This document shows positions 2,769-31,941 of a stretch of DNA of 64,000 bases, one piece after another. This DNA is from Opitutales bacterium (lineage in GTDB: Bacteria; Verrucomicrobiota; Verrucomicrobiia; Opitutales; JAFGAQ01): contig JAPXRV010000006.1 of the NCBI GenBank assembly GCA_033813415.1, positions 10,384 to 74,383 on the forward strand, in the 5' to 3' direction. Each line of letters opens with the position of its first letter. Position 1 is the stretch's first letter. The notes below the pieces were generated by a model. It searched no databases and was not told the origin of the DNA. It saw only the letters and a program-made list of their open reading frames with translations. The position numbers were made by a program, and so were the translations under genes.

Positions 2769-3962
2769 TCAAGCCTCCTGAGCCTTGACACGCTCCACAA
2801 TTTTCCGTGCCGCGTCACTCAAGCTGTCAGCTGAATCATGGGCGATGCCGCTCTCCTTGAGGATCTGCTTGCCTTCGTTCACCTCACTACCTTCCAAGCG
2901 GATGACAAGCGGAATCGAAATACCCACGGCCTTGGCTGCTGCAGTCACGCCCTTGGCAATCGTCGCACAACTCATAATACCGCCGAAGATATTGACGAGA
3001 ATACCCTTCACCTTCTTGTCGGAAAGGATGATGCGGAATGCCTCGGTCACCTGCTCAGTGGTTGCACCACCGCCAACATCCAGGAAATTCGATGGATTAC
3101 CCCCGAAGTGCTTGATGATGTCCATGGTCGCCATTGCAAGCCCGGCACCGTTGACAAGACACGCAATATTTCCCTCCAAAGCAATGTAGCTCAGGCCCCA
3201 CTTGGAAGCCTCAATCTCGCGGGGGTCCTCTTCGTTCAGGTCACGCAAAGCCACAATCTCAGGATGCCGGAATAATGCGTTGTCATCAAAACTCACCTTG
3301 GCGTCCAGCGCCTGAAGTTCGCCCTTTTCTGAAATGATCAGTGGATTGATTTCAACCATGGAGCAATCCTTCTCGATGAACAGCCGGTAGAGCCCATTGA
3401 GCAATTTGTCTGCCTGCTTCACAAGATCGCCTTCAAGCCCAAGCGCATACGCCACGCGCCTGCACTGATACGGTTGCAGGCCAATCCCGGCATCCACCGG
3501 AACCCGGATAATTTTCTCTGGAGTATCCGCTGCAACCTGCTCGATCTCAACGCCACCTTCAGTGGAAGCAATGATGATCGGGTTGGACGTCTCCCGATCC
3601 ATCAGGATCGCGAGGTAGTACTCTTTGCAAATCTTACAGGCCCCTGTGAAATAGACCGTCTTGACCATTCGACCCGCAGGTCCAGTTTGCTTCGTGATCA
3701 AGGTATTTCCCAGCATGCGCTTGGCCATCTCGGCGCCTTCACAGCAGGAATTCGCCAGCTTTACCCCACCCTTGTAACCATCGGCAAATGTTCCCTTCCC
3801 TCTGCCTCCAGCATGGATCTGAGCTTTTACGACAATGGTGTCCACGCAAATGCGCTCCAGAGCCGGACCTATATCCCCGGCATCCTGAACAGCGATGCCC
3901 GTTCCACAGGCAACACCATATTGGCCAAACAATTCCTTGGCCTGGTATTCATGAATGTTCAT
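2769..3962 (-). CDS. sucC: Succinyl-CoA synthetase beta subunit
   Basis: [13 protein letters not shown]-terminus, an ATP-grasp region, a GG-rich CoA-ligase C-terminal part, and adjacency to sucD. Confidence 0.92.
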
Positions 3963-4199
3963 GTTAGATGATTTGCGCCTTCAGGAAACGAAAGTCGAAT
4001 GTTTTCCCGTCCTACAGCGCCGGATTTTGCATCTTCGAATACTTCTAATGTCGAACATTAGACGGTATTGGGATATCGGCATCGATTCACAACCCTTCAC
4101 CCTGGAACCGGGAAAAGGAAATGCATAAAACCTCAATCCGTATGAGGGTATGTCGATACCCATAGCAGCCATCGTCCTGACGGCTCACAGTGACTGGAC

Positions 4200-26061: not shown

Positions 26062-28098
26062 TCAGAGTCCTTTGCGGGTGAGCATCCAAACACTATCCGA
26101 CACGTTAGCCGGTAGTCCTTTAGCCCATCCATCCGTTTCGACAACACAATCAATTGCCCGTTCTTCACCTGTGTCCAAATCGAAGACCCGGCCTTCGTAG
26201 GACCCGGGAGCGATCCCTTCAACCTGAAGGTCAAAGGTAGAACCCAACGCTTCGGGGGCGACCACCGTTCGCATCAGCAACCGGTCATCCTCTCCTACAG
26301 CATAGGCATGGATCCCTTGCCCCAAACCGCCAAAATCAATCCCTTCGAGGCGAAACCAATCCGCTCCCACACTGGCAATTGAAAACACGTGCGGTCCGGC
26401 TGCGAAAGGAACCTCCACCGGATCGGGTGGCGGTGGCCAATCATTCGGATCGTGGCTGGGAGGCTGGGGATCAAAAACCTTGCGGGACACCTCTTGTCCG
26501 TCGAGCGACAAAACCATCTCCGCCCCTTTCGCCCCGACCCCCGTCAGCCGAACCCGAATGACCCCTTCTTTCGCGGCATCAAAGCTGAACTGGAGCGGTT
26601 CACGGGTCATTTCCGCATGCTCGCCAGTTTGGGAATTCATGTACGCCGACACCTCCATCTGGTGGGCGGCTGAAAAGCCCTCCGGCAAATCGAAGGCATA
26701 TCGGCGGGTGGCCTTCCACCCCAGACCGGGCTTGAATGATCCGGTGCCCTCGATCCCGCTTTTGAGAACCACCGTCTTCGCCTTGGATTCCTTCCATGAC
26801 GGATACCCCGAAATATCCAATATATTCGCGGCATTGCGGTACTCGGCATCCAGATCCAGCATGACCACCCGTTCCCAATACCAGTAGGACGCGGCTCCCG
26901 CATGCCCGGAAAGAATCCCGGCCCATATACCATCCCGCAACACCCGATGTTCACGGTCTTCAACAAAATTGGCCCCTCCGTATTCTCCGAAAAACCAAGG
27001 CTTTCCTTTGACCGGAGGCGTTCCGGAGATCGAAGTAAATACATCAGCCGGGTAGATGTGGGGCTGATAGAAGTCCATTTTGGCATAGAGCGCTGGATGC
27101 TCGACTTCCGAACTTATCGTGATAAGGTGCTGATGCGTGTCAATCGAACGGATCATCCCGGCCATGCTGTTGGCCCAGGTCGAAACAGCATCCCAGTCAT
27201 GATTCTTGCGCACCGGATCCACCCACTCGACTTCATTGAACAATTCCCATGCCATCACCGATGGTGAATGTCCCCAACGCGCAACGGCATGCCGAAGCCA
27301 GTTTTTGGTCCACCGGATCGCCTTCGGGTCCGTGAAGAAATCCCCCGGCTGCTCCAGAAATCCTCCGTTCGCCTTATTCCATGGGTGAATGTCCCAGTTT
27401 GAGTTCACCTCCGAGCTGAAAAGCCCGTGATGAAACAAGACCAGTTGGAAACGCATTCCGGCGGCATCCGCGGCCGACACAATCCGATCCCACTGTTTCA
27501 ATGCCGAGGGCAATAGCTCCCCATCGGGAGCCACGGAGTCATCTCTGGTATCGAAGAACGGGCTTTTTCCGTCCCAGTGGCAGGCCCAAATCCGTGCCCA
27601 GTTCATCCCGGCCTCACTCATGAGACCAAGATGGTCGGAAATTGTCAGAATCCGCTTGTCCTGCCAGCCCAGATTGTGACCCAACGGGAAAAAGGGAAGC
27701 CCTTCATCCGTCTCAAATCGCTCGCCCCTTACCCGGACAAAGCCCGATCCAAGCAACTCGTCCTCTGGCACCACCAAGCCCTGCGCATCCACCCCGCCCA
27801 CGGGCGATCCATCCATCATCAATCTCGCATCGTAGGTGCCGGGGTGTTTGGCAACGAACCATGCCTTCCACTGCCCATCGTCGAAGTAAGCCAGACGCTC
27901 CTCCCGCCCACCATTCGCGGAAACAAACTCCACCCGGTAGTCGGCCGTCTCATGATCGTATGGGTTTCCCTCGTGAGCATGATCAAAACTCACTTGCACC
28001 GGCCCATACCACTCCGAAGTGAACAAGAATATTAACGGACTGATAATTGATGTCATCACAGACCGTTGAAATGGGGAGGCGGATGGGCCTGTTGTCAA
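26062..28098 (-). CDS. Glycoside hydrolase, GH5-like (beta/alpha)8 catalytic domain with N- and C-terminal beta-sandwich domains
   Basis: WELFNEVEW (acid/base NE) and WFFGEYGG (nucleophile E) motifs spaced as in clan GH-A enzymes. Start uncertain. Confidence 0.7.
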   Translation of the reverse strand: MTTGPSASPFQRSVMTSIISPLIFLFTSEWYGPVQVSFDHAHEGNPYDHETADYRVEFVSANGGREERLAYFDDGQWKAWFVAKHPGTYDARLMMDGSPVGGVDAQGLVVPEDELLGSGFVRVRGERFETDEGLPFFPLGHNLGWQDKRILTISDHLGLMSEAGMNWARIWACHWDGKSPFFDTRDDSVAPDGELLPSALKQWDRIVSAADAAGMRFQLVLFHHGLFSSEVNSNWDIHPWNKANGGFLEQPGDFFTDPKAIRWTKNWLRHAVARWGHSPSVMAWELFNEVEWVDPVRKNHDWDAVSTWANSMAGMIRSIDTHQHLITISSEVEHPALYAKMDFYQPHIYPADVFTSISGTPPVKGKPWFFGEYGGANFVEDREHRVLRDGIWAGILSGHAGAASYWYWERVVMLDLDAEYRNAANILDISGYPSWKESKAKTVVLKSGIEGTGSFKPGLGWKATRRYAFDLPEGFSAAHQMEVSAYMNSQTGEHAEMTREPLQFSFDAAKEGVIRVRLTGVGAKGAEMVLSLDGQEVSRKVFDPQPPSHDPNDWPPPPDPVEVPFAAGPHVFSIASVGADWFRLEGIDFGGLGQGIHAYAVGEDDRLLMRTVVAPEALGSTFDLQVEGIAPGSYEGRVFDLDTGEERAIDCVVETDGWAKGLPANVSDSVWMLTRKGL

Positions 28099-28202
28099 AC
28101 CTATTGACCAATTCGTGGCATCTTCGATCCCCGAATCCGGTCACATCAATCGGAGACGAGACAGAGATCCGCTCCGGGACACAATCCTCAGGTATCAATC
28201 CG

Positions 28203-28685
28203 CTACTTGGAAAGCGGGTTCTTGATCTGAACCACCCGGGTATACTGCATCCTGAACTCCTTTTCCAGCAGGTCCCGCGTGGACTGGGGAATCTTCTTAA
28301 CCCAATCCTCTATTGAGTCCCCTTCCTTACTATCTGTCGCTCCGGAAAAATCCTCCTCCGTGATATCATCCCGCCCGCCTCCAGCATCATCAACCGGAAT
28401 CACAAATCCTTCCGGCAATTCAGTCGGGAACTCCGAATCAGCCACATCTCCGCCGTCAAATCCCATCTCCGCAGGATGCACACACGCCACTACAGAAGCG
28501 TTCGGGGATTCCGCATCCACTTCCTCGTCCTCATCGCATGCGCCCGAGGGAACAGCCGGCGACACTGGTGCTTCATCCGGAATGCTTCGAGCACTTCCCT
28601 GCCCCGGCCCATCCGCTGAAATCCGCCCCAGCACCATGGGGATCGAAACAGCCGGGCGATCAGTCCCGCCCGTCAGGACTTTTTT
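28203..28685 (-). CDS. dnaX: dnaX -1-frame extension (putative tau-specific C-terminal region), contiguous with dnaX only after a -1 shift at the A-run
   Basis: I translated the -1 frame by hand from the slippery site. It is open through GTC CTG ACG GGC GGG ACT GAT CGC CCG GCT GTT TCG ATC CCC ATG... into the 144-aa ORF 28203..28637. See the finding for details. Confidence 0.55.
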
Positions 28686-28689
28686 TTTT
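28653..28689 (-). promoter_or_regulatory. Candidate programmed -1 frameshift / slippage cassette: A10 run containing A AAA AAG, 6-nt spacer, GC hairpin
   Basis: Minus strand reads GAG GAA AAA AAA AAG TCC TGA CGGGCG ggactgat CGCCCG. The heptamer A AAA AAG is in the correct phase with the dnaX zero frame. The hairpin arms are at 28672-28667 and 28658-28653. Confidence 0.55.
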
Positions 28690-29806
28690 CCTCTTCCGCA
28701 GGCAGACTGTCCCGCATCGCGGCGATATCCCGAATCAATTGATCAATTGAAGTCGCGCCAATCTCACGCAAGGCCTTGAGAAGGGTCACTTCGAAATTCA
28801 CCCGATCCGAAAGTCCACGCTTCACCGCATCCTCACCCTTCTTCAAGGTGTCAATCACGCGGACATACGCCTGAGAGGATACACCGCCGCTTCCCTGCGC
28901 ACTTCCACCCAGACGCTCCAGCAGACGCGAACGGAAATACGATTCCAGATCGAGCAACACCCGGTAGAGATCCCGCCCTTCATTGACCAACTCATCGACG
29001 GCCACCATCAATGCCCGCTCATCCTGATCCTCGATCAGTGAAGCGATCTTCCCGAGTTGATCCATCGGCGCCAGTCCATAGACGTTGCTGACATCCTTCT
29101 CATCAATCTGGTTGCCGCAGAACGCGATCAACTGGTCAAGGATCGACTGGGAATCCCGCATCCCCCCGTTTGCCAGCTTGGCAATCGCCTTCAAAGCGCT
29201 CTCACTCACGTTGATCTTTTCCGCCGCCGCGATCTCGGAGAGCTTGGCCATGATCACCGCATCGTCGATCGGCCTGAATTCAAAGCGTTGGCAACGTGAC
29301 ACGATCGTGGGCAGGACCTTCTGAGCCTCTGTCGTCGCGAAAATGAATTTCACATGCGGCGGAGGCTCCTCGAGCGTCTTGAGCAGTGCGTTGAAAGCCG
29401 CATTGGTGAGCATGTGCACTTCGTCGATGATGTAGATCTTGAAGCGCCCCTGCGTCGCACCGTAGCTACAGTCCTCCCTCAGGTCGCGGATCTGATCCAC
29501 CGAGTTGTTCGAGGCCCCGTCGATTTCGATCACATCGAGAAACTGCCCGGCCATGATCGCCTTGCAAATCGGGGAATCCGGAGAGGGTTCAATAGTCGGT
29601 CCATTCTCGCAGTTCAACGCGCAGGCAAACAAACGGGCAGTACTCGTCTTTCCGGTGCCACGGGGTCCGACAAAAAGGTAAGCATGCGCGATCCGATCCT
29701 GCTCGATTGCATTCCGGAGAGTCTGGACAATGTGCTCCTGCCCAACCAGTTCCTTAAAACTGCGTGGGCGCCAACGGCGTGCGATGACCTGATATGACTG
29801 CTGCAT
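28673..29806 (-). CDS. dnaX: DNA polymerase III subunit gamma/tau, zero-frame product (377 aa, gamma-like)
   Basis: [25 protein letters not shown], Walker [10 protein letters not shown], zinc module CALNCENG and DEVHML. The ORF ends ...EEEKKKS* right after the A-run. Confidence 0.9.
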
Positions 29807-29963
29807 GGTATGGGAAGCAGACTAAAGCCACCGATCCACAACTCAACCCAAAACACCGCTTACTTGCATCATCCACGATCAATGGCCCATGAAGACTACT
29901 CCCCGCGGGCGTTGCCAAACATTACAGGCCGCTCAGGTTCCTCGACTTCTCTTTTCACTGAGC

Positions 29964-30495
29964 GCTTTGTGGCAAATAATCCTCTTCATACCTGCTGCCC
30001 CAGGATCGAAATCAACCGTCCTCTTCCGGAGGGCATGGCTTCAGCCATGCCACCCCACCAGCCCTTCATTCGCTGGCGGATGAGCGAGGACGCTCATCCC
30101 TACCCGCAACAGCCAATTTTCCCCGTATCCAAGGTAGGGCGAACCGTCCCGGTGAGCCGCCTCTTCTCCCCCTTTGTGGTAAAGAAAGACAAAGAGCTCT
30201 ATTCACCACGAAGAAACGAAGGTCCACGAAGAAAGATCTGCCATCATTCCCTCCAACCTTTGTGGTCTCTGTGTGCTTTGTGGCAAATAATCCTCTTCAG
30301 AGCTGCTGCTCCGGACAAGAAATCAACAGTCCTCTTCCGGAGGGGGTGGCTTCAGCCATCCTCTTTTGCCATACCCCACCAGCCCTTCATTCGCTGGCGG
30401 ATGAGCGAGGACGCTCATCCCTACCCGCAACAGCCAATTTTCCCCGTATCCAAGGCAGGGCGAGGTGTCCCCACCGAGCCGCTCTTCTCCCCCTT
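29964..30495. repeat. Two copies (about 215-220 nt each, offset about 311-321 nt) of a non-coding repeat with an 83-nt perfectly identical core
   Basis: The core accccaccagcccttcattcgctggcggatgagcgaggacgctcatccctacccgcaacagccaattttccccgtatccaagg occurs at 30052-30134 and 30373-30455. Each copy starts with gctttgtggcaaataatcctcttca (29964, 30275). It contains a 9-bp hairpin, ggatgagcg-agga-cgctcatcc. Confidence 0.85.
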
Positions 30496-31145
30496 TTCGT
30501 GCATTCCATGATTTTCGTGGTTGATCTTGCTCTCCATCTTTCTCCCCCTTCGTGCTCTTCGCGTCCTTTGTGGTAAAGAGAACTCTTTTTTGGACAGGAT
30601 CCACAGAATTGAAGAAGATTTGTCTCACGCAATGACCCCAAGACCCAAAGGGAAGAAGTTGGAATCAACCACTGATGGACTTCCCGGGAGATCTTCCCAT
30701 CATTGTCTATCAGTGTGCATCAGTGGTTGAATAAAGTTTTTCCTCTTCTTTCATGATTTTCGAGTCGTTCGTGGTTAACCCTCTTCAAACCTTGTGGCGA
30801 GGCGGTAAGGCCGAAGCCATCGTGGTGGGCGAAACTCATAGCAATGCCCATCCAGCGAGCAAAGTGAGTGATGTTGAATACAAAGAGTATCATAACATCG
30901 CCCTGCGGGCTATACGCCCCGAGCCTGCGGCTCAGTGCACAGATGTCCCTCGACTTCGCTCGGGACAACATACTATGAGTAAGAATCTGTTGTTTTGCGT
31001 CAGCAAAACGTATGTGGCCCGAAGGGCTTATAGCGAAGCGATGTTGAATACTCTTTTTTGAACAACGTTCGACTGCATGAGGACGTAGTTGCACCATGCT
31101 GACTCATTCTCTTTTCTCGAACAGGCAGCTCACTGACTTCGGCGT

Positions 31146-31889
31146 CTATGCTGAAGCATCCGGAGCCTGGATCACACCCTTGTTAATGAGATAATTCGCC
31201 CATTCCACATCCACAGGCCGGGTGATTTTGAAATTCGGTTGGGAAGACTCCAGAAGGCTGACCCGCCCTCCGCTCATCGCATAAGCGCCCACGCAATCCG
31301 TTACCACCGCGCCACTGTGCTGAACGGATCGGTAGGCATCCAGAATCGCACCATAGCGGAATACCTGAGGCGTCTCCATGGCCCAAAGCAAAGGGCGCTG
31401 AAGATCCCTGAGATTCAGGTTGCGCGTCTCTCCTTCATGGTCCGCCTGCTTGATGGTATCCGTCACCGGACGCGCCAGCGCCGCAGCTCCATCCTCCAAG
31501 ACCGCCTGTTTCAGCCGCACCAGGTCCTGAACCGTCACAAAGGGCCGGGCCACATCATGAACCGCTACCCATCCCGCATCCTCCGGCAATGCTTCCAGCC
31601 CATTGAACACGGAATCCTGACGCCGCGCTCCACCTTGAGCCCAATGCACGCGGGTGTGCCCCAGCGGAATTCCGGCAAGCTCAGCTTCAATCGCAGCGCG
31701 CTGCGCTTCATCCCGTGTCACAATGACAAGTTCCTGGAAAATCCCGGCTTGCAGAAACACATTCAGGTTCCACCGGACCACCGTTCCCCACGAACCAATC
31801 CGCAGAAGCGTCTTGTCCCGCGTGACCTCCTTCAGACGCGATCCGCTACCCCCGGCCAACAGAATCGCCGCAAATCCCTCTCTGCTCAT
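31146..31889 (-). CDS. ispD: 2-C-methyl-D-erythritol 4-phosphate cytidylyltransferase
   Basis: AAILLAGGSGSRL N-terminal motif and VAVHDVARPF. Start trimmed to MSREGF at 31889. Confidence 0.85.
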   Translation of the reverse strand: MSREGFAAILLAGGSGSRLKEVTRDKTLLRIGSWGTVVRWNLNVFLQAGIFQELVIVTRDEAQRAAIEAELAGIPLGHTRVHWAQGGARRQDSVFNGLEALPEDAGWVAVHDVARPFVTVQDLVRLKQAVLEDGAAALARPVTDTIKQADHEGETRNLNLRDLQRPLLWAMETPQVFRYGAILDAYRSVQHSGAVVTDCVGAYAMSGGRVSLLESSQPNFKITRPVDVEWANYLINKGVIQAPDASA

Positions 31890-31941
31890 ATTCGACCCGA
31901 TTTGTTTCGATGTGCAAAAGCACGCCTTCAGCACCCGAACG

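Follow-up and report, generated by a model that had tools for sequence, protein, structure and literature searches.

How a bacterium obtains the long, tau-like form of DnaX from a gene whose genomic reading frame ends directly behind a run of adenines is the question raised by a dnaX locus on the minus strand of the window, by which we mean the whole 64-kb stretch of Opitutales DNA that was analysed. The tau product of dnaX is normally essential. The original prediction for this locus combined two proposals, namely that a gamma-like protein is made by default, with tau depending on recoding, and that the recoding is a −1 ribosomal frameshift of the E. coli type, assisted by a Shine-Dalgarno (SD)-like element and a hairpin. 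As will be seen, the first proposal has held up considerably better than the second. Direct reading of positions 28203-29806 gives the minus-strand junction as GCG GAA GAG GAA AAA AAA AAG TCC TGA, and re-reading the sequence bore out the predicted layout, with a zero frame of 377 aa ending in EEEKKKS, its stop two codons beyond the run, and an A AAA AAG heptamer embedded in the run in the correct phase (Table 1). Beyond the run, the −1 frame (GTC CTG ACG...) is free of stops as far as its terminal TAG and contains the 144-aa ORF 28203..28637 to which the prediction had joined it; the translated fusion is 534 aa long, matching the expected size of about 534 aa. This fusion is the identical product whether it results from a −1 ribosomal shift or from one extra A in the mRNA.

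Table 1. Coordinates of the dnaX recoding locus within the 64-kb window
Feature	Position	Strand	Description
dnaX zero-frame ORF	28673..29806	minus	377 aa, gamma-like, domains I-III; C-terminus ...EEEKKKS, then stop
A10 slippery run	28689-28680	minus	codons GAA AAA AAA AAG; proposed RNA polymerase slippage site
Heptamer A AAA AAG	28685-28679	minus	inside the A10 run, X_XXY_YYZ phase
Zero-frame TGA	28675-28673	minus	two codons past A10; gamma end on unslipped mRNA
+1-frame TGA	28662-28660	minus	reading AGT CCT GAC GGG CGG GAC TGA
−1-frame tail	28206..28679	minus	158 codons, VLTGGTDRP...NPLSK; TAG at 28205-28203
Conserved C-terminal motif of the tail	28206..28313	minus	presumed polymerase-binding end of tau
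Hairpin CGGGCG, 8-nt loop, CGCCCG	28672-28653	minus	arms 28672-28667 and 28658-28653; probably incidental

The assignment of the gene to dnaX is secure. The 377-aa product matches DNA_pol3_delta2 (1e-45) and DNAX_ATPase_lid in Pfam, and the NCBIfam models dnaX_nterm (TIGR02397, 1.2e-123) and PRK05563 (7e-132, above the cut-off of that model). Among PDB sequences, residues 4-306 align with E. coli gamma/tau (1JR3/3GLH) at an E value of about 6e-74. All three resources thus agree with the predicted identity, and the 377-aa protein is a complete DnaX clamp-loader core, comprising the ATPase and the collar.

The 158-aa tail, by comparison, returned no match in sequence searches of Pfam, NCBIfam, or the PDB. 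Most of it is an acidic, variable linker, and conservation is limited to the last ~35 aa, where 72 distinct tails have in common the pattern LPP.EDLV.RIP...RE..EELFRA.FVTVKR.P. The same motif also terminates an in-frame DnaX of 451 aa from a member of the Puniceicoccaceae (L006). Profile-profile comparison of the tail C-termini with the canonical DnaX C-terminal motif (..DPLI.KALE.F.G.IVEV..) produced a weak alignment (P 0.0056, probability 6.5%), which is suggestive of homology between the tail motif and the canonical tau C-terminus. In E. coli, the C-terminus of tau tethers the polymerase. From the position of the motif and this established role of tau, we infer that the tail may end in a polymerase tether of the same kind.

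Since homopolymers are prone to error and a single additional base would restore one continuous dnaX frame, the locus could in principle be an artifact of sequencing or assembly, with a true run of A11. Relatives of the gene bear directly on this reading. A database-wide search with the tail retrieved only four proteins, of 140-144 aa and 69-92% identity, none of them fused to DnaX. The contigs carrying tail homologues derive from five assemblies of five samples (L001-L005), drawn from ENA, Logan, and NCBI and named 'Opitutales bacterium', and they represent two related lineages distinct from that of the window. In every one, the tail ORF comes immediately after a 377-aa dnaX, and the junction consists of exactly A10 and a subsequent GTCCTGA. 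Among species-representative genomes, MAGs of the Opitutaceae and Puniceicoccaceae come closest, with 55-60% identity. Four Opitutaceae (L007-L010, 55-58% identity) carry A10, A9, A10, and A10, respectively, at the homologous site, and in each of them the −1 frame encodes the tail; the zero-frame stop falls 1-3 codons past the run in L007-L009. The tails of these four genomes extend for 108-132 codons beyond the run, or 112-129 aa past the zero-frame stop, and all end in a common motif (..LV.RIP..VRE.L..LFRA.F..V.R).

A broader survey of metagenome contigs relied on peptide patterns from the C-terminal end of gamma, upstream of the run, so that the run itself was not selected for. Eighty loci were recovered, and although these loci are mutually related and their counts do not represent independent events, 79 of the 80 possess a run of A9 (48 loci) or A10 (31 loci), the remaining one ending before the site. 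The A9 class typically reads NNA AAA AAA AAC GAC TGA and the A10 class GAA AAA AAA AAG GNC TGA. Of the 69 loci that could be scored with a profile HMM of the C-terminal motif, 68 have this motif in the −1 frame. More distant Verrucomicrobiota have a single dnaX ORF of 470-600 aa that lacks the A-run.

Because the same A10 and the same stop recur in five independently assembled close relatives and in the Opitutaceae, assembly error can be excluded as the source of the split, and we assign it a negligible probability. An erroneous run would have to have acquired the same out-of-frame length in more than 80 loci assembled independently by many projects, while the in-frame length appears in none of them, counted per class; the stops that are conserved in both non-tau frames likewise count against an error. 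Conservation across the Opitutales therefore indicates that the dnaX split is programmed. The alignment of relatives that had been proposed as a check on the original prediction gave the same answer, with both the split and the A-run conserved and no relative having the in-frame length for its run class. From the conservation of the run in the Opitutaceae and in the survey, together with the tail motif in the −1 frame, it follows that the gamma-by-default, tau-by-recoding layout is, as judged by comparison, real and under selection. The inverted logic first proposed for the window is thereby upheld, given that both the site and the direction of the shift are retained (79 of 80 and 68 of 69 loci, respectively).

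Long homopolymers are also mutable in DNA, and heritable switching between A10 and A11 by slipped-strand mispairing would make the locus a case of phase variation. Against this, tau is normally essential, so cells in the 'off' state would be inviable unless rescued at the RNA level. Moreover, the in-frame allele occurs in no assembly within either run class, and we consider DNA-level switching extremely improbable.

The gene could alternatively be truly split, with the 144-aa ORF translated separately from its ATG at 28637 to provide a subunit of its own. Gene callers do report the tail as an independent ORF, and its ATG is retained in the closest relatives. Against this reading, the window sequence holds no SD ahead of the ATG at 28637, an absence that counts against separate translation, and more distant relatives lack an equivalent start even though the −1-frame peptide is conserved right from the run. 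For that peptide, conservation begins with the first codon past the run (GLIDRLE or RLT), and its Leu and Gly codons vary synonymously, which argues for coding sequence that extends right up to the run and against a separate initiation site. In L006 and L115/L116, furthermore, DnaX and the tail form one continuous frame. Its existence as an independent gene unlinked to dnaX in relatives would have spoken against the original prediction; instead, the tail was found adjacent to dnaX in all cases. Separate translation of the tail is thus very improbable.

With the recoding layout in place, the choice of mechanism lies between the ribosome and RNA polymerase. The E. coli dnaX cassette consists of an A AAA AAG heptamer, an SD-like element 10 nt upstream, and a stem-loop 6 nt downstream. 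The locus in the window resembles it in being the same gene, with the heptamer in phase and placed where domain III ends, and differs from it in the outcome, as the shifted product in E. coli is gamma whereas the shift in the window yields the long product. A −1 programmed ribosomal frameshift on A AAA AAG, aided by a GAGG and a hairpin, has several points in its favor. The heptamer is in phase in the window, each relative likewise contains an in-phase A_AAA_AAG or A_AAA_AAC, and a GC hairpin lies downstream at the E. coli spacing. Reversed dnaX cases have also been regarded as possible instances of ribosomal frameshifting (PMC5009743).

The accessory elements do not withstand closer inspection. 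The predicted 6-bp GC hairpin is present and begins 6 nt after the heptamer, as described, but the 55-nt segment downstream of the run folds no better than dinucleotide shuffles of it (z −0.60; 45 of 200 shuffles at least equal). Nor is the hairpin kept in close relatives: in L002 the closing pair is gone, and in L004 the 5′ arm has changed at two positions without compensation. The flanks of 79 non-redundant relatives show no excess of structure over shuffles either, the mean folding z being −0.18 on the downstream side and −0.10 on the upstream side, where a stem-loop might have stimulated slippage. The GAGGA that had been noted as an SD-like element does lie upstream, but it abuts the A10 run, its GAGG ending 3 nt before the heptamer in place of about 10. 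It is not conserved either: L004 has lost the GAGG, most relatives lack it, and an SD-like 4-mer is found 6-18 nt upstream in 21 of 76. An Rfam scan of positions 28000-30800, accepting E values up to 10, gave matches at chance level and no DnaX frameshifting element. A tRNA scan of the window for tRNA-Lys(CUU) returned a single tRNA-Gly and adds nothing to the choice of mechanism. The window therefore departs from the E. coli cassette in having no conserved or significant stem-loop, in its misplaced SD-like element, and in a run that is longer than the heptamer.

Two further features of the relatives fit poorly with the ribosomal model, which leaves both the run length of at least nine and the closure of the +1 frame unexplained. 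In addition, 48 loci carry A_AAA_AAC, reportedly far less shifty in E. coli than A_AAA_AAG (PMC5009743). With its hairpin insignificant, its GAGG unconserved, and the Rfam element absent, the E. coli-type mechanism of the original prediction is not sustained, and we consider it unlikely. The phase of the heptamer is itself uninformative, because any run of at least nine A contains an in-phase A_AAA_AAN and so cannot separate the two mechanisms.

Several lines of comparative evidence instead favor slippage by RNA polymerase. The first concerns the run as a whole. It is the longest homopolymer of the 64-kb window, in which three others reach 8 nt and none is longer. Over its whole length, dnaX uses AAG over AAA (17 versus 3 codons), and two of the AAA codons and one of the AAG codons are situated in the A10 run. 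Kept in more than 80 related loci and against the codon usage of the gene, the run is beyond chance. No surveyed locus has a shorter one, all 79 having at least nine A, and in the A9 runs the first A always comes from the third position of a codon that is otherwise variable (TCA, CTA, TTA, GTA). Run length, first-A codons, and dnaX codon usage together indicate that selection is acting on the full run, beyond the heptamer.

The second line concerns the two frames that do not encode tau. In 70 of 73 loci, each of them meets a stop within 10 codons of the run (medians of 1 and 5 codons), whereas such double closure is seen at 3.9% of control positions in the tails. Of the two stops, the nearer one, normally that of the zero frame, occurs 0-7 codons after the run in the relatives, with a median of 1; by the counting used in this survey, the two stops in the window lie 1 and 5 codons past the run. 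Double closure favors slippage, because a pure −1 ribosomal shift would have no need of it, and it mirrors the arrangement in Thermus dnaX. A third line comes from loci in which the genomic frame is the other one. In L006 (Puniceicoccaceae, A10 at 4124-4133) and in L115/L116, where A10 occurs just after the end of the scan match at 1686, at the homologous site, tau is in the zero frame. That A10 is retained whichever frame is the genomic one fits a site that always yields mixed transcripts. Taken together, the comparative data point to RNA polymerase slippage at A10 as most likely, ahead of an E. coli-style ribosomal frameshift.

We therefore favor, as a probable reading of the comparative data, a two-ORF dnaX in which the genomic frame encodes the gamma-like core and the 534-aa tau-like form derives from transcriptional slippage on A10. 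RNA polymerase would slip on the run (T10 in the template) and add one A, thereby placing the mRNA in the tau-like frame; the loss of two A's or the gain of four would lead to the same frame. On unslipped mRNA, translation would stop at the zero-frame TGA, two codons beyond the run, and give the 377-aa gamma. Transcripts that are short of one A or that carry two additional ones would run into the second TGA, six codons on, and specify a second gamma-like variant. A single gene could in this manner provide both products at a gamma:tau ratio set by the frequency of slippage, which we infer to be high enough to supply tau. A −1 shift of ribosomes at the A AAA AAG within the run may contribute as well.

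The Opitutaceae genome L010 presents one detail that this scheme does not accommodate. In this MAG (DASRSJ010000033.1, ~3120-3142), an in-frame TAG is located two codons before A10 (CCC TAG GGC GAA AAA AAA AAG GAC TGA). This TAG would end gamma ahead of the slip site and is unexplained by the slippage model.

The inverted dnaX arrangement is already published, having been described in 2013. Antonov et al. (NAR 41:6514, PMC3711429) reported two-ORF dnaX genes, 17 in number and from 12 genera, nine of them with A10, and interpreted them as cases of transcriptional realignment by analogy with Thermus. Figure S3 of that study (PMC3711429) includes Coraliomargarita akajimensis, itself a member of the Opitutales, with the junction GACGAAAAAAAAAAGTCCAGTGA; its junction GAAAAAAAAAAGTCC is almost identical to that of the window. 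As in the other genes of this type, the gamma ORF in the window ends just past a poly-A run (7-10 A in that set), and the −1 frame continues without a gap into the tau part. Nothing essential distinguishes the window from the published set, the difference being that it represents an uncultured Opitutales lineage outside of it. The reversal was also noted by Atkins et al. in 2016 (PMC5009743), who pointed out that the two products can exchange roles through the change of one nucleotide.

In the dnaX of Thermus thermophilus, RNA polymerase slips on an A9 run (Larsen et al. 2000, according to PMC5009743 and PMC3711429), and a stop lies close by in either frame that a slipped transcript can enter (PMC5009743). 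The window shares with Thermus a run of at least nine A at the gamma/tau boundary, close stops in both alternative frames, and a layout for obtaining two products from one gene. The wiring is reversed, however, as the genomic frame of Thermus encodes tau and the slipped frames gamma. Exactly the Thermus wiring is found in L006 and L115/L116, and the occurrence of both wirings in real genomes shows the single-base role reversal predicted by Atkins et al. 2016. No experimental test of two-ORF dnaX genes was found in the searchable literature.

What the present analysis contributes beyond these reports is the spread of the arrangement through the Opitutales, where it falls into an A9+C and an A10+G class, together with the findings that the two non-tau frames are both closed and that a single order contains both wirings. 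The comparative data, drawn from sequence, make a case for slippage by the polymerase over slippage on the ribosome. If an essential replisome subunit can be made only through a decoding 'error', its gene is a clear example of programmed recoding, one that annotation pipelines still overlook. In a public relative, the tail is annotated as a separate hypothetical protein, and DnaX hence looks truncated. The main practical consequence is accordingly a correction of annotation for the tail, which now stands as a 'hypothetical protein'.

A more far-reaching reading, which we put forward tentatively and regard as possible but doubtful, would have the Opitutales obtain tau solely from slipped transcripts, so that polymerase infidelity at A9/A10 sets the tau:gamma ratio and could tune it to growth conditions. 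The tau so produced would be a minimal one, composed of an acidic disordered linker and the ~35-aa motif and devoid of the globular domains IV and V found in canonical tau. On the same reading, the run would have switched between tau-in-frame and gamma-in-frame states within the order.

The surroundings of the gene show several peculiarities of their own. Downstream of dnaX, in place of the usual ybaB/recR, lies a conserved ORF of 664-678 aa (26062-28098, minus strand in the window), whose relatives have no Pfam match on record. On the other side, a 1.3-kb gap separates dnaX from an ispD-like ORF (31146-31934, minus strand). In a related lineage, the ispD-dnaX gap is occupied by a reverse-transcriptase (RVT_1) ORF of 331-355 aa (1485-2480 in L001, 1413-2480 in L002), which is absent from the ORF list for this gap in the window. 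The gap in the window contains two direct repeats of ~230 nt (29955-30185 and 30266-30506) that are 85-96% identical; only these two copies are present within the window, and the repeat has no Rfam match. Each of them contains the palindrome GGATGAGCGAGGACGCTCATCC.
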